Positions 4,268-21,206 of a stretch of DNA of 49,798 bases are shown here, piece after piece. The notes under the pieces are model-generated. The model was given only the letters and a program-made list of their open reading frames with translations. It did no database searches and was not told the origin of the DNA. The DNA comes from a virus (taxonomy: Duplodnaviria > Heunggongvirae > Uroviricota > Caudoviricetes). Numbering within the stretch: the stretch's first letter is position 1; every line of letters begins with the position of its first letter. The stretch lies in IMG/VR virus record IMGVR_UViG_2568526473_000003, one strand, 5' to 3'. A program made the position numbers and the translations under genes.

Positions 4268-4549
4268 TCACCGTTCCTTAAAGACGCCGTTTAACATGCC
4301 GATCGCCAGGCTTAAATGAGTCGGTGTGAATCCCATCAGCGTTACCGTTTCGCGGTGCTTCTTCAGTACGCTACGGCAAATGTCATCGACGTTTTTATCC
4401 GGAAACTGCTGTCTGGCTTTTTTGATTTCAGAATTAGCCTGACGGGCAATACTGCGAAGGGCGTTTTCTTGCTGAGGTGTCATTGAACAAGTCCCATGTC
4501 GGCAAGCATAAGCACACAGAATATGAAGCCCGCTGCCAGAAAAATGCAT
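4268..4549 (-). CDS. Hypothetical early-left protein, 93 aa (non-lambda)
   Basis: ORF starts 11 nt after the orf63 stop (translational coupling geometry) and is co-oriented with the pL operon; no recognised homolog. Confidence 0.5.
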   Translation of the reverse strand: MHFSGSGLHILCAYACRHGTCSMTPQQENALRSIARQANSEIKKARQQFPDKNVDDICRSVLKKHRETVTLMGFTPTHLSLAIGMLNGVFKER

Positions 4550-4559
4550 TCAGTGGTTG

Positions 4560-4751
4560 TCATACCAGGTCTCTCTCATCTGCTTCTGCTTTCGCCACCA
4601 TCATTTCCAGCTTTTGCGAAAGGGATGTGGCTAACGTATGAAATTCTTCGTCTGTTTCTACTGGTATTGGCACAAACCTGACTCCAATTTGAGCAAGGCT
4701 ATGTGCCATCTCAATACTCGTTCTTAACTCAACAGGAGATGCTTTGTGCAT
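4560..4751 (-). CDS. Lambda orf63-like early protein, 63 aa
   Basis: 192-nt ORF with the same length and 28-nt overlap with the next gene as recalled for lambda orf63; assignment by synteny and size. Confidence 0.55.
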   Translation of the reverse strand: MHKASPVELRTSIEMAHSLAQIGVRFVPIPVETDEEFHTLATSLSQKLEMMVAKAEADERDLV

Positions 4752-4906
4752 ATCGCCTCCCGTTTATTATTTATCTCCTCAGCCAGCCGCTGGGCTTTCA
4801 GTGGATTTTGGATAACAGAAAGGCCGGGAAATACCCAGCCTCGCTTTGTAACGGAGTAGACGAAAGTGATCGCACCTACCCGGATATTATCGTGAGGATG
4901 CGTCAT
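4724..4906 (-). CDS. Lambda orf60a-like early protein, 60 aa
   Basis: 183-nt ORF with 4-nt ATGA overlap with the exo stop, as in lambda; assignment by synteny and size. Confidence 0.5.
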
Positions 4907-5583
4907 CGCCATTGCTCCCCAAATACAAAACCAATTTCAGCCAGTGCCTCGTCCATTTTTTCGATGAACTCCGGCACCATCTCGTCAAAACTCGCCATGT
5001 AATTTTCATCCCGCTCAACCACGACATAATGCAGGCCTTCACGCTTCATTCGTGGGTCATAGTTGGCAAAGTACCAGGCATCTTTTCGCGTCACCCATAT
5101 GCTGTACTGCACCTGGGCCATGTAAGCCGACTTTATGGCCTCGAAACCACCGAGCCGGAATTTCATGAAATCCCGGGAGGTAAACGGGCATTTCAGTTCA
5201 AGGCCGTTGCCGTCACTGCATAAACCATCGGGAGAGCAGGCGGTGCGCATACTTTCGTCGCGATAGATGATCGGGGATTCAGTAACATTCACGCCGGAAG
5301 TGAATTCAAACAGGGTTCTGGCGTCGTTCTCGTACTGTTTTCCCCAGGCCAGCGCCTTAGCATTAACTTCCGGAGCCACACCGGTGCAAACCTCAGCCAG
5401 CAGGGTGTGGAAGTAGGACATTTTCATGTCAGGCCACTTCTTTCCTGAGCGGAGCTTTGCTATCACGTTGTGAACTTCTGAAGCGGTGATGACGCCGAGC
5501 CGTAATTTGTGCCATGCATCATCCCCCTGTTCGACAGCTCTCACGTCGATCCCGGTACGCTGCAGGATAATGTCCGGTGTCAT
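4903..5583 (-). CDS. exo: Lambda exonuclease (Red-alpha), 226 aa
   Basis: Translation [43 protein letters not shown]... matches lambda Exo. Confidence 0.97.
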
Positions 5584-6365
5584 GCTGCCACCTTCTGCTC
5601 AGTGGCTTTCTGTTTCAGGAATCCAAGAGCTTTCACTGCTTCGGCCTGTGTCAGTTCTGACGATGCGCGAATGTCGCGGCGAAATATCTGGGAACAGAGC
5701 GGCAATAAGTCGTCATCCCATGTTTTATCCAGGGCGATTAGCAGAGTGTTAATCTCCTGCATGGTTTCATCGTTAACCGGAGTGATGTCGCGTTCCGGCT
5801 GGCGTTCTGCAGTGTATGCAGTATTTTCGACAATGCGCTCGGCTTCATCCTTGTCATAGATACCAGCAAATCCGAAGGCCAGACGGGCACACTGAATCAT
5901 AGCTTTATGCCGTAACATCCGTTTGGGATGCGACTGCCACGGCCCCGTGATTTCTCTGCCTTCGCGGGTTTTGAATGGTTCGCGGCGGCATTCATCCATC
6001 CATTCGGTAACGCAGATCGGATGATTACGGTCCTTGCGGTAAATCCGGCATGTACAGGATTCATTGTCCTGCTCAAAGTCCATGCCATCAAACTGCTGGT
6101 TTTCATTGATGATGCGGGACCAGCCATCAACGCCCACCACCGGAACGATGCCGTTCTGCTTATCAGGGAAGGCGTAAATTTCTTTCGTCCACGGATTAAG
6201 GCCGTACTGGTTGGCGACGATCAACAATGCGATGAACTGCGCATCGCTGGCATCGCCTTTAAATGCCGTCTGGCGAAGAGTGGTGATCAGTTCCTGTGGG
6301 TCGACAGAATCCATGCCGACACGTTCAGCCAGCTTCCCTGCCAGCGTTGCGAGTGCTGTACTCAT
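5580..6365 (-). CDS. bet: Recombination protein Bet (Red-beta), 261 aa
   Basis: Translation [59 protein letters not shown]... matches lambda Beta. Confidence 0.97.
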
Positions 6366-15855: not shown

Positions 15856-16517
15856 ATATCTACGAAAGAATTGATGGCAGCAAATACCGAAATATTTGGG
15901 TAGTTGGCGATCTGCACGGATGCTACACGAACCTGATGAAAAAACTGGAGACGATAGGATTCGACACCAAAAAAGACCTGCTTATCTCGGTGGGCGATTT
16001 GGTTGATCGCGGTACAGAGAACGTAGAATGCCTGGAATTAATCACATTCCCCTGGTTCAGAGCTGTACGTGGAAACCATGAGCAAATGATGATTGATGGC
16101 TTATCAGAGCGTGGAAACGTCAATCACTGGCTGCTTAATGGCGGTGGCTGGTTCTTTAATCTCGATTACGACAAAGAAATTCTGGCTAAAGCTCTTGCCC
16201 ATAAAGCAGATGAACTTCCGTTAATCATCGAACTGGTGAGTAAAGGAAAAAAATATGTCATCTGCCACGCCGATTATCCTTGTGATAAATACGAGTTTGG
16301 AAAGCCAGTTGATCATCAGCAGGTAATCTGGAACCGCGAACGAATCAGCAACTCACAAGACGGGATCGTGAAAGAAATCAAAGGCGCGGACACGTTCATC
16401 TTTGGTCATACGCCAGCAGTGAAACCACTCAAATTTGCCAACCAGATGTATATCGATACTGGCGCAGTGTTCTGCGGAAACCTCACATTGATTCAGGTAC
16501 AGGGAGAAGGCGCATGA
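15852..16517 (+). CDS. ninI: Ser/Thr protein phosphatase (lambda PPase, NinI), 221 aa
   Basis: Calcineurin-like phosphoesterase motifs (GDLHG, GDLVDRG, GNHE) matching lambda phosphatase. Confidence 0.9.
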
Positions 16518-17137
16518 GACTCGAAAGCATAGCTAAATTTCATTCGCCAAAAAGCCCGATGATGAGCGACTCACCACGGGCCACGGCTTCTGACTCTCTT
16601 TCCGGTACTGATGTGATGGCTGCTATGGGGATGGCGCAATCACAAGCCGGATTCGGAATGGCTGTATTCTGTGGTAAGCACGAACTCAGCCAGAACGACA
16701 AACAAAAGGCTATCAACTATCTGATGCAATTTGCACACAAGGTATCGGGGAAATACCGTGGCGTGGCAAAGCTTGAAGGAAATACTAAGGCAAAGGTACT
16801 GCAAGTGCTCGCAACATTCGCTTATGCGGATTATTGCCGTAGTGCCGCTACGCCGGGCGCAAGATGCCGAGATTGCCACGGTACAGGCCGTGCGGTTGAT
16901 ATAGCCAAAACAGAGCAGTGGGGGATAGTTGCTGAGAAAGAGTGCGGAAGATGTAAAGGCGTCGGTTATTCAAGAATGCCAGCAAGCGCCGCATATCGCG
17001 CTGTGACGATGCTAATCCCAAACCTTACCCAACCCACCTGGTCACGCACTGTTAAGCCGCTGTATGACGCTCTGGTTGTGCAATGCCACAAGGAAGAGTC
17101 AATCGCAGACAACATTTTGAATGCGATCACACGTTAG
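16514..17137 (+). CDS. Q: Late antiterminator Q (lambda type), 207 aa
   Basis: Translation [50 protein letters not shown]... matches lambda Q. Confidence 0.93.
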
Positions 17138-17177
17138 CGCCATGATTGCCACGGATGGCAACATATTAACGGCATAA

Positions 17178-17230
17178 TATTGACTTTTTGAATAACTTTG
17201 GGGAAACTTGACACCAATAATGGGCGTTTT
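17178..17230 (+). promoter_or_regulatory. Putative late promoter pR' with Q-utilisation region (TTGACT -35 at 17180-17185)
   Basis: Sequence ttgactttttgaataactttggggaaacttgacaccaataatggg parallels the lambda pR'/qut layout immediately downstream of Q. Confidence 0.5.
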
Positions 17231-17416
17231 TTACATGTCATTGATGAGTCTCAATAACCTGCCGCCGAGTAGTTTTTATGCTCTGAATTGTATTTGTGTA
17301 GTAAACATGCTGACTGCAATGTAATAGAGTTTTTTTAGCCTGTAACCTCTTGACGGCATTGAATTGCTTTTGTTATGAGTTGTAAGCCAATGTTATCATC
17401 TTGTATTGGGGTGGTT

Positions 17417-18133
17417 ATGAAGGATGGTGCACTGCTCAGGAGTTCTTCACTTTTTATTGCCTACATGGGATGCCTTGGATGGGGGAGTGCTTATTTCTAT
17501 GGATGGGGTACTTCTTTTTACTACGGCTTCCCATGGTGGATTGTAGGTGCAGGTGTTGATGATGTTGCCAGAAGTTTATTTTTTGCAGTTATCGTCATTG
17601 CTATATTTCTTATCGGTTGGGGTATTGGTGTTGTATTCTTTTTCGCAGTGAAAAGAAAACATTCTATGCAAGAGCTAAATGTATTTCGCCTTTATTTTGC
17701 TGTGGAATTATTGTTTGTGCCGGCAATTATTGAGTTTTCTATATTGAGACAGAAGATTCAGGTACCTCTTTTGCTACTGTCAGCAGCGATTGCGCTGGCG
17801 GTTACAATTTCGATAAGATCTTATGGGCGATTTTTATCGGTATCATGCTTCTATGATAAGCCATTTATAAAAAAACATTTTTTTGAGATTGTGATGATTG
17901 CTTTTGTGGCATATTTCTGGCTTTTTTCATTTCTGACAGGATATTACAAACCGCAGTTTAAGAAAGAATATGAAATGATTAATTATAATGATGGTTGGTA
18001 TTATGTTCTTGCTCGTTATGATAATTGTCTGGTTTTGTCTACTTCTTTTAATGCAGGTAGTAAAAGGTTTGTCATTTATCAATCAGCACAAGATAAGAAT
18101 CTTCAGGTTGATATTGTAAGGACCAGAATTTAA
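17417..18133 (+). CDS. Hypothetical multi-pass membrane protein (late-operon moron between Q and the lysis genes); alternative start 17375
   Basis: AT-rich ORF with about 5 hydrophobic helices plus a C-terminal soluble region, at the site where Stx phages carry stx. Confidence 0.55.
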   Translation: MKDGALLRSSSLFIAYMGCLGWGSAYFYGWGTSFYYGFPWWIVGAGVDDVARSLFFAVIVIAIFLIGWGIGVVFFFAVKRKHSMQELNVFRLYFAVELLFVPAIIEFSILRQKIQVPLLLLSAAIALAVTISIRSYGRFLSVSCFYDKPFIKKHFFEIVMIAFVAYFWLFSFLTGYYKPQFKKEYEMINYNDGWYYVLARYDNCLVLSTSFNAGSKRFVIYQSAQDKNLQVDIVRTRI

Positions 18134-18675
18134 TTGGCTGCATAAATAATATTTTAAGTTGCAAGTTGGCTATTCGTAGGAATAGAACCTTAGGCATGCT
18201 GAATGCGTTTTCTGAACATTGTTTTATAAACTGTGTCTGCTTGCTGTTGTGATCCTGCTTTTAGTGATGGTGATGATGGATTTCACCAGCAGGATAATGT
18301 TGGTACTGACTGATGGCGCTCTGGTCTGCGGCATTGTGGTATTGCTGTGGCCGATGATGAAAGAACAGAATGAATAATTCTTGACTTTTTTGTTTACTGT
18401 TTATTAAAAAACCAACCGCATGGTGAATCCTCCTTGGAGGGGCTAAATGATCGAGTTTTAAGGGCACGTAGCGAGTTCTGTTTGATCATTGCAGAACTTA
18501 GCGGGAGGCGCCATGCGTACATCACTAGTGTTATTCCTTCTATCATTTTCCTTGTGAGTTCTGGCTGCGCATGGCGCGGCCTTTTTTTTATGACCTGCCA
18601 CTGGCAGACGGTCATCCTGTGATTTGATTCCGGTTCCGGCTTTTTAACTCTGCTCCTCTACACGGGAGAAATTCG

Positions 18676-18846
18676 ATGTTGATTAAACATTATGATGTTG
18701 TCAGGGCGGCATCGCCGTCAGATCTTGCGGAAAAGCTGACACACAAACTGAAAGAGGGCTGGCAGCCGTTTGGTAGTCCGGTGGCCGTAACCCCTTATAC
18801 CCTGATGCAGGCGATTGCAGCAGAAGGTGATGTGGTGGTCAAGTAA
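18676..18846 (+). CDS. Small hypothetical protein (56 aa) upstream of the lysis cassette
   Basis: ORF MLIKHYDVVRAASPSDLAEKLTHKLKEGWQPFGSPVAVTPYTLMQAIAAEGDVVVK preceded by a GGGAGAA ribosome-binding site. Confidence 0.45.
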   Translation: MLIKHYDVVRAASPSDLAEKLTHKLKEGWQPFGSPVAVTPYTLMQAIAAEGDVVVK

Positions 18847-19314
18847 TACTGGCCACAGTGACCCCGAAACTGAATGGAGTGGCAGGTTCGGCACTCCAGG
18901 TCATAAAAGACAGTCTGACACTGAGGCTGAATGTGCTGATGCTGACGGATGTTACAAAAAATGCAGCGTATGGCGTTGAGATAGAAAGTCTGGTGCTGGA
19001 GATAAATGCACCGGCAGCATAATAAAAAAAGCCAGCGCCACTCTGAAGGACGCTGGCTAAAACGGGTAGATGTACTTCACATGATACTTATACTTGGCAG
19101 TACATTTTCTGACAGACAGTGACGGATGTTGTCAAGATATTGTGTCATTTATAACCTGAATCAGGGGGGGCCGGAATGTTATCTGCCATTTTTAGCAGAG
19201 CCTGAATGCCATAATCACGGCTCCCGGCGTTGGCCGTCAGTGGGTGACACTGGCGGCTTTTTTGTTTTTCTTTACTTTTCATTTTCTGTCGGCGGTGACG
19301 GAGACATACATCAG

Positions 19315-19521
19315 ATGGAAAAAATCACAACAGGTGTGTCATACACCACGTCAGCGGTGGGGACGGGATACTGGTTACTGCAGCTGCTGGACAAAGTCTC
19401 TCCGTCCCAGTGGGTGGCAATAGGTGTGCTGGGGAGTCTGCTGTTTGGCCTGCTGACGTATCTGACAAACCTTTATTTCAAGATTAAAGAAGATAAGCGT
19501 AAGGCTGCGAGAGGTGAATAA
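19315..19521 (+). CDS. S: Holin (phage 21 S21-type pinholin), 68 aa
   Basis: Translation [68 protein letters not shown] resembles S21. Confidence 0.85.
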
Positions 19522-20018
19522 TGTCGCCATCATTACGCAAGGCTGTTGCTGCTGCTATTGGTGGTGGGGCTGTTGCCATAGCGTCTGTGCTCATCACTGG
19601 TCCGAGTGGTGACGATGGCCTGGAAGGTGTCAGCTACATACCATACGAAGATATCGTTGGCGTATGGACTGTATGTCACGGACACACCGGAAAAGACATC
19701 ATTCCCGGTAAAACGTATACCGAAGCAGAATGCAAAGCCCTCCTGAATAAAGACCTTGCCATGGTCGCCAGACAAATTAACCCGTACATCAAAGTCGATA
19801 TACCGGAAACAACGCGCGGCGCTCTTTACTCGTTTGTTTACAACGTGGGCGCTGGTAATTTCAGAACATCGACGCTTCTTCGCAAAATAAACCAGGGTGA
19901 TATCAAAGGCGCATGTGACCAGCTACGTCGCTGGACATACGCTGGCGGTAAGCAATGGAAAGGCCTGATGACTCGTCGTGAGATTGAGCGTGAAGTCTGT
20001 TTGTGGGGGCAGCAATGA
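19521..20018 (+). CDS. R: SAR endolysin (lysozyme with N-terminal signal-anchor-release domain), 165 aa
   Basis: N-terminal Gly/Ala-rich weakly hydrophobic segment followed by a lysozyme-like domain; follows the pinholin as in phage 21. Confidence 0.85.
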
Positions 20019-20482
20019 GCAGAGTAACCGCGATTATCTCCGCTCTGATTATCTGCATCATCGTCTGCCTGTCATGGGCTGTTAATCATTACCGTGATAA
20101 CGCTATCGCCTACAAAGAGCAGCGCGACAAAAACGCCAGAGAGCTGAAGCAGGCGACCGCCACCATTACTGACATGCAGCAGCGCCAGCGTGCTGCTGAT
20201 GTACTCGATGCTAAATACACGAAGGAGTTAGCCAATGCGAAAGCTGAAAATGATGCTCTTCGGCGTAAGCTTGATAATGGTGGTCGGGTGCTCGTCAAAG
20301 GAAAATGCCCTGTGTCAGCCTCAGCCAAAACCTCCAGCTCCTCCGGCATGGGCAATGAGGCCACCGTCGAACTCTCTTCAGTTGCTGGACGAAACGTTCT
20401 CGGTATCCGGGACGGAATTATCCGTGACCAAACAGCACTGAGAACGCTTCAGGAGTACATCAGGACGCAATGCCTGAAATAA
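20015..20482 (+). CDS. Rz: Rz inner-membrane spanin (i-spanin), about 155 aa
   Basis: N-terminal TM segment ([16 protein letters not shown]) plus coiled-coil region; ATGA overlap with the endolysin stop. Confidence 0.85.
20235..20441 (+). CDS. Rz1: Rz1 outer-membrane lipoprotein spanin (o-spanin), embedded in Rz in the +1 frame
   Basis: Signal peptide with lipobox (VVGC) and proline-rich mature region, fully nested within Rz. Confidence 0.8.
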
Positions 20483-20645: not shown

Positions 20646-21206
20646 GTGAGACAGGCTCACTTTCTAAAAGGTAAAGACGCTATGAATAATCATTCAGTTA
20701 TTCCAGCCTTCGACTTCCGAGAAATGGTGCAAGCCAAAAACGGAGAGGTCGTTACCACATCCAGAAAAATTGCCAAGTACTTCGGCAAGCGACACGGTGA
20801 TGTTCTCAGGAAAATCGAGCAGGTTAAGGCTGATTGCTCGCGTGAGTTTAGCCAACGCAATTTTGCGTCGGCTGATTATATCGATGAGCAGGGCAAGGTT
20901 CGCCCGATGTACAGCCTGACGAAAGATGGCTGGATCATGGTTGTGATGGGGTTCACCGGGAAAGCTGCTGCGGCAATCAAGGAGAGCTATATCGCAGCAT
21001 TCAACTGGATGGCAGAGCAACTGAGCCGCCGCATGGCAATTGGCGAAGAAATGCAGCACCGCTACGCCATCAAAGAAACACGCTCAAAGCTGAAAGGTAC
21101 GATCGGCAGTCGGTTAATGAACGAACGGAAGAGAGAGAAGCGTGTCCTGGCTGTCGAGCATGAATACATTTTGCAGGTGACACAGCCTGAACTGCTGATT
21201 AATTGA
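20646..21206 (+). CDS. Rha-family phage regulatory protein (start possibly 20682)
   Basis: Motif TSRKIAKYFGKRHGDVLRKIE typical of Rha-domain proteins. Confidence 0.6.
   Translation: MRQAHFLKGKDAMNNHSVIPAFDFREMVQAKNGEVVTTSRKIAKYFGKRHGDVLRKIEQVKADCSREFSQRNFASADYIDEQGKVRPMYSLTKDGWIMVVMGFTGKAAAAIKESYIAAFNWMAEQLSRRMAIGEEMQHRYAIKETRSKLKGTIGSRLMNERKREKRVLAVEHEYILQVTQPELLIN

Follow-up and report, generated by a model that had tools for sequence, protein, structure and literature searches.

A TfpB/STM1630-family membrane protein gene in the cargo slot between Q and the lysis cassette of a lambdoid prophage

Between the late antiterminator gene Q with its promoter pR' and the lysis genes of the virus record IMGVR_UViG_2568526473_000003 lies an AT-rich open reading frame for a protein with several hydrophobic helices. 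The question raised by this locus is what such a protein does there, and whether its gene obeys Q. The original prediction took it for a Q-dependent late membrane protein that could be an exclusion factor, a lysis modulator, or a virulence-associated factor. We analyzed the gene, its family, and its surroundings in the window (the whole stretch of 49,798 nucleotides); Q, pR', tfpB with its candidate promoter, DUF3927, the terminators, the nanS-p remnant, and the lysis genes, described below, all lie on the + strand.

The reading frame at 17375-18133 is unbroken over 252 codons and is a real gene, since dN/dS values of 0.053 and 0.089 against the orthologues from E. albertii and Escherichia sp. 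(97% and 94% identical) indicate strong purifying selection and since the family counts 103 protein clusters. Its base composition is foreign, with a GC content of 0.361 in the gene itself and 0.32-0.41 across 17150-18350, compared to 0.47-0.53 in the flanks. Nearly all homologues in the 103 clusters are 236-238 amino acids long and start at the equivalent of M15 (ATG 17417), where the ETEC plasmid paralogue has a GTG start; ATG 17375, for its part, lies within a conserved TATGAG hexamer resembling a -10 box. For these reasons the true coding sequence is probably 17417-18133 (238 amino acids), and the first 14 codons of the frame are probably untranslated. The sequence GGGGTGG stands just 5' of ATG 17417. 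Thus, the AT-rich frame between Q/pR' and the lysis cassette was borne out and the expected length of about 240 amino acids fits, with the start moved from 17375 to, probably, 17417.

Similarity over the full length places the product, hereafter TfpB, in the TfpB/STM1630 family (Pfam PF27470), and a precomputed hit to PF27470 'TfpB' accompanies every homologue (103 clusters; E down to 1e-157). The protein is 100% identical over 238 amino acids to CPT_434_68 of phage 434, annotated as 'putative membrane protein' (UMO75332.1), and it shares 98% identity with a gene product of phage 2B8; among 50,697 phage records, these two are the only phages with the gene. The CDS of WP_001299184.1, 'STM1630 family protein', gave a 100% tblastn match to the window protein, and it is this name that the newer annotation (PGAP) assigns to the identical protein. 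In PHROGs it belongs to phrog_1521, category function unknown; the prediction of an unknown function agrees with these database entries. Local Pfam-A and NCBIfam scans of the window protein returned no match because the PF27470 model, newer than those copies, is missing from them, and a Pfam scan of all 32 members of a wide alignment with a copy lacking PF27470 returned noise only. In one NCBI record, a fragment bears the name 'protein tfpB', which we take to stand for 'toxin flanking protein', presumably from studies of the sequences around eltAB. Literature searches on TfpB, 'toxin flanking protein', DUF3927, and phage 434 with LpxR retrieved nothing relevant. Annotation of the gene and a catalogue entry for its family exist already, and tfpB in this window is an ordinary cargo gene; the modest lead lies in its recurrent association with toxins and effectors.

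The family is small. An exhaustive profile search of 1.84 billion proteins yielded 72 representatives at E <= 0.001, and all named source organisms are enterobacteria except for one metagenome fragment labelled Acinetobacter. A near-identical cassette is present in 682 of 5,426 complete E. coli genomes (about one in eight), as counted with a 1.5-kb query spanning pR', tfpB, and its small neighbour that had to match over at least 80% of its length. In a metagenome-assembled genome labelled 'Veillonella sp.', a 3-kb contig (JAIITD010000172.1) carries NinI, Q, tfpB, and DUF3927 at 99-100% identity to E. coli prophage DNA; misbinning of an E. coli contig is the most likely reason.

Hydropathy analysis of the protein revealed four clear hydrophobic segments and one aromatic/glycine-rich segment. 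An AlphaFold model built from 30 close homologues was poor (pLDDT 58); once distant relatives had been added from among the 72 representatives of the exhaustive profile search, pLDDT rose to 81.7, with a pTM of 0.73. The improved model contains five helices (residues 10-36, 47-79, 88-111, 116-137, and 155-181), in keeping with the 'about five hydrophobic helices' that had been anticipated, followed by a C-terminal beta domain of five strands (184-235, ~55 amino acids). TfpB thereby has the architecture of its family: ~238 amino acids, an aromatic/Gly-rich motif in TM1, five transmembrane helices, and a C-terminal beta domain. Judging from the positive charges, the topology is probably N-in/C-out with the beta domain in the periplasm: the mean number of lysines and arginines is 1.2 at the N-terminus, 2.9 in loop 2, and 3.3 in loop 4, compared to 0 and 0.5 in loops 1 and 3, a pattern that is also seen in distant members. 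The best conserved stretch of the family, AY..GWGSAYFYGWG.S.YYGFPWW...DDVARSLF, comprises TM1, the loop YYGFPWW, and the start of TM2 (DDVARSLF); together with the C-terminal domain, it would face the periplasm.

In the wide alignment, the near-invariant positions are occupied by Gly, Ala, Tyr, and Phe only, and this lack of a conserved catalytic set argues against an enzyme. No match to the model was found among solved structures and viral folds; the C-terminal domain has a weak likeness to SH3/Tudor-like barrels (E about 1), and a profile search of PDB sequences returned nothing, even at E 10. The homology and fold searches that had been proposed as a check delivered a family (PF27470/STM1630) and an identical protein in phage 434, but no matching fold.

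Upstream of tfpB lie the genes for NinG, the NinI phosphatase, and Q. The latter (16514-17137; PF03589, E 4e-58) is of the lambda type, with 201 of 207 residues (97%) shared with lambda Q. From there, the order is pR', tfpB, DUF3927, a terminator, a nanS-p remnant, a second terminator, and S-R-Rz. The DUF3927 ('TciB-like') gene encodes a small membrane protein of 52 amino acids (18219-18377; PF13064, E 3.4e-14; PHROG 1470); in nearly all IMG/VR loci that are long enough, it lies 802 nt downstream of the tfpB start. The remnant of nanS-p, a gene for a SASA-family sialate esterase, extends over 18676-19062 and includes a 56-amino-acid DUF1737 frame (18676-18846; Pfam E 3.8e-17); an internal deletion has removed ~1.5 kb, so that window positions 18813 to 18852 correspond to positions 4541 to 6084 of the 434 locus (L001). 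The lysis cassette (19315-20482), recognized from Pfam matches (PF04971, E 1.2e-32; PF00959, E 2.3e-45), its reading frames, and the homologous 434 annotation, consists of a P21-type pinholin gene S (19315-19521), a SAR endolysin gene (19521-20018), and Rz (20003-20482) with Rz1 embedded at 20235-20441.

The late region as a whole (16514-20482) is a mosaic that joins a lambda-type Q/pR' to a P21/933W-type lysis cassette rather than to lambda S/R. A reading frame for 62 amino acids at 18434-18622, annotated as 'putative membrane protein' in phage 434, overlaps the first of the two terminators, is split in two in many related loci, and probably does not represent a real gene.

The tfpB-DUF3927 pair thus fills the slot between pR' and nanS-p. 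The slot itself was observed as foreseen, and we take it to be the position of stx in Stx phages; in the Stx1a phage records, the match to the window begins only at the nanS-p remnant. Lambda carries nothing at the Q-to-lysis cargo site, and 434 and 2B8 carry tfpB there. This variable presence among related phages and the deviant GC content (0.36 versus ~0.50 in the flanks) are those of a moron, as the original prediction had it. In the 434 record, the whole tfpB region is marked as replaced in the variant 434B, which suggests that it is dispensable. Like the lambda morons lom and bor, and like stx and nanS-p as cargo of Stx phages, tfpB is an extra gene of foreign composition in a variable slot; a candidate promoter and a terminator may be its own. 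In contrast to Lom and Bor, outer-membrane proteins or lipoproteins whose phenotypes are known, and to the Stx toxin, TfpB is a polytopic protein of the inner membrane.

Is tfpB a Q-dependent late gene? By homology, pR' with the Q-binding region is located at 17180-17208 (-35 TTGACT, 17-nt spacer, and a weak -10, GAAACT). It can be aligned, base for base, with the lambda DNA that immediately follows Q (NC_001416), which we take to hold lambda pR', the feature table of that record marking no promoter. The homology to lambda stops ~10 nt after the pR' start region, and the 6S/tR' segment is absent from the window. At 17256-17277 there is a decayed remnant homologous to the terminator that precedes tfpB in phage 434 and in O157 prophages. 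The annotated terminator of 434 (L001, 2982-3007) has a folding energy of -13.3 kcal/mol (z -3.05); relative to it, the version in the window is short of four T's and of part of the stem, and its folding energy of -5.1 kcal/mol (z -0.31) is no better than that of shuffled sequence. A consensus scan of 17138-17417 found no terminator-like sites. The decayed form is the one found in the lambda-Q cassette (the window, phage 2B8, and strain 2013C-3264); given this decay, the two versions may differ in whether tfpB needs Q.

Moreover, tfpB has a candidate promoter of its own at 17350-17379, with a -35 element TTGACG (17350-17355), an 18-nt spacer, and an extended -10 element, TGt plus TATGAG (17371-17379). 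Its elements CCTCTTGACG and TTTGTTATG are kept in the ETEC plasmid paralogue (59% amino acid identity), and the non-coding DNA around them is unalignable between the two, so that the candidate promoter stands out as an island of identity. A consensus promoter scan reported neither pR' nor this candidate. Downstream of pR' and tfpB, the first strong intrinsic terminator is located at 18563-18590 (8-bp GC stem, T8; -15.2 kcal/mol, z -2.63), and a second one, just upstream of the holin gene, at 19232-19268 (11-bp stem, T run; -21.6 kcal/mol, z -4.9).

The terminator that would be expected between pR' and a Q-dependent late gene thus appears to be missing, and, with a candidate promoter of its own in addition, tfpB in this window is probably transcribed without Q. 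The absent 6S/tR', the decayed 434-type terminator, and this promoter make the description of its product as a Q-dependent late protein doubtful here, as far as can be read from the DNA. Silencing by H-NS or termination by Rho could still prevent its expression in lysogens.

The closest known arrangement is that of phage 434 and the O157 prophages, in which tfpB likewise follows Q and is followed by DUF3927, and the 434 protein is identical to that of the window. There, however, Q is of the Q82 type, an intact terminator separates pR' from tfpB, and an LpxR gene lies upstream, with a complete nanS-p in 434, whereas the window has a lambda Q, the decayed terminator, no LpxR, and the deleted nanS-p. 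The LpxR lipid A deacylase gene of phage 434 and the O157 prophages is located just upstream of ylcG-Q-tfpB; its coordinates in the loci of phage 434, of an O157 prophage, and of C. rodentium are L001 810-1769, L003 1331-2290, and L016 4863-5823, and the C. rodentium gene is split in two.

Across the family, members are single genes, all of them AT-rich (GC 0.30-0.41), and their surroundings differ. E. coli prophages have tfpB directly after a lambda-type or Q82-type Q: such a Q was visible upstream in 79 of 80 IMG/VR loci, the remaining one having too little upstream DNA, and DUF3927 follows tfpB in these 80 loci wherever enough downstream DNA is present. With Yersinia enterocolitica, where tfpB follows a third Q family (PF06530), the gene is the first after Q/pR' in many lambdoid prophages with three different Q types. 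Only in the E. coli prophage lineage does DUF3927 constantly accompany tfpB; it was considered as an obligate partner of the family and rejected because it is absent beside the plasmid and chromosomal paralogues.

On ETEC plasmids, the 59% identical tfpB shares the candidate promoter (TTGACG-18-TGtTATG) with the window, but it is plasmid-borne, starts with GTG, and is divergent from eltAB, near STb, with flanking IS elements. The Shigella virulence plasmid pINV carries a relative between spa40 and virA; the downstream ORF, compared with SteB, showed no resemblance. In Salmonella, a relative (P0075; 46% identity, E 1.3e-70) lies between sseJ, a Sif/GDSL-lipase gene, and a convergent 133-amino-acid ORF in the position of steB, and because these flanks match the published description, we identify it as the name-giving STM1630. 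The tfpB gene on the C. rodentium chromosome adjoins LpxR and has on one side adh, MCP, and LysR, as in the Salmonella islet; both islets may be prophage remnants. A Klebsiella island combines tfpB with a two-partner secretion system, AraC, DsbA, and STb. Distant members occupy variable chromosomal islets, one of them adjoining AAA_21/AAA_23 ATPase genes beside icd in what is apparently an inserted islet.

STM1630 (SL1344_1560) of Salmonella Typhimurium resembles the window gene in length, architecture, AT-richness, acquired nature, and single occurrence (46% identity, E 1e-70) but differs in being chromosomal, between the effector genes sseJ and steB, outside any prophage and without a DUF3927 partner. 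According to published data, it is bound by H-NS, co-regulated with virulence genes, and expressed in SPI-2-inducing medium and inside macrophages; ST313 strains carry an inactivated version of its promoter. Attenuation was seen with signature-tagged mutants in both calves and chicks; strain 4/74 replicated more in macrophages once the gene had been deleted, and deletion in ST313 had no effect. One screen found the mutant to be hypermotile, and a follow-up study suggested that some motility effects of that screen may be indirect. The gene was also reported to be without transposon insertions, which was attributed to H-NS binding. The phenotypes of this 46% identical homologue are mild and partly inconsistent.

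Taken together, we favour, with evenly balanced confidence, the explanation that tfpB is a lysogenic-conversion gene whose inner-membrane product acts on the envelope from the periplasmic side, independently of lysis. TfpB would be a non-enzymatic cargo protein of the prophage with five transmembrane helices, standing outside the lysis machinery. In the lysogen, tfpB and DUF3927 would be transcribed without Q, by read-through from pR' and/or from the extended -10 promoter, with these transcripts ending at 18563-18590; after induction, Q would boost this transcription further and would be required to pass both downstream terminators and reach the lysis genes. The protein might then bind an envelope or periplasmic component and so alter envelope or host-interaction traits of the host. 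The relatives on ETEC plasmids, Shigella pINV, the C. rodentium chromosome, and the Klebsiella island live autonomously from lysis genes. Their closeness to toxin genes may reflect no more than a clustering of AT-rich acquired DNA.

The strongest rival, which we nevertheless judge unlikely, is superinfection exclusion or anti-phage defence, in which TfpB would benefit the lysogen by blocking the DNA entry of incoming phages or by triggering abortive infection. Such a role would suit a cargo gene that occupies a recognized moron slot, is probably expressed in the lysogen, and encodes a polytopic inner-membrane protein whose conserved face is predicted to be periplasmic; the distant relative next to the ATPase genes would fit as well. 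Yet the protein matched no PADLOC model and showed no sequence or fold similarity to known exclusion proteins; many members reside in non-phage virulence loci, and expression of the Salmonella member in SPI-2 medium and macrophages is not what a defence role predicts.

We consider it still less probable that TfpB serves periplasmic toxins, effectors, or envelope remodelling as an accessory factor, promoting release, assembly, or activity of products of neighbouring genes such as LT, STb, Stx, or LpxR. The neighbourhoods do recur: eltAB and STb on ETEC plasmids; STb, DsbA, and a two-partner secretion system in Klebsiella; LpxR in phage 434, O157 prophages, and the C. rodentium chromosome; sseJ and steB in Salmonella; and the slot between pR' and nanS-p, presumably that of stx. 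The name tfpB in Pfam and in one NCBI record, presumably 'toxin flanking protein', fits as well. The window, however, has neither a toxin nor LpxR and yet carries the identical gene under selection, the neighbours are unlike one another (periplasmic toxins, cytoplasmic T3SS effectors, an outer-membrane enzyme), and no single partner is conserved.

A wider form of this idea, to which we give equally little credence, sees in the whole family periplasm-facing inner-membrane factors coupled functionally to acquired virulence cargo, through release or activity of periplasmic toxins (LT, STb, Stx), LpxR remodelling, or restraint of intracellular growth. Such coupling would explain why toxins and effectors accompany the gene in ETEC, Shigella, Salmonella, Citrobacter, and EHEC prophages and, if true, would make the family a new class of accessory proteins shared in virulence, with a fold absent from solved structures.

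Least credible is a lysis modulator (antiholin or timing factor) made late under Q control: TfpB is a membrane protein encoded in the late transcription unit upstream of the pinholin/SAR-endolysin cassette, but family members exist as single genes on plasmids and chromosomes where no lysis genes occur, searches with the 238-amino-acid protein gave no match to a holin or antiholin family, the gene is separated from S by 1.2 kb with two terminators (in relatives, by nanS-p too), and lambda and 434B lyse without it.

For the lysogenic-conversion reading and its rivals alike, the analysis narrows the options to a protein that is probably expressed in the lysogen, would face the periplasm, has no conserved catalytic set, and is independent of lysis genes. 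The gene is common and strongly conserved and adjoins major toxins or effectors, with members in E. coli, phage 434, pINV, ETEC plasmids, and Salmonella.

A further cargo-type gene lies between the lysis and packaging genes of the window: an ORF of 186 amino acids at 20646-21206 directly follows Rz, and at the equivalent position in strain 2013C-3264 a 'Rha family transcriptional regulator' is annotated.
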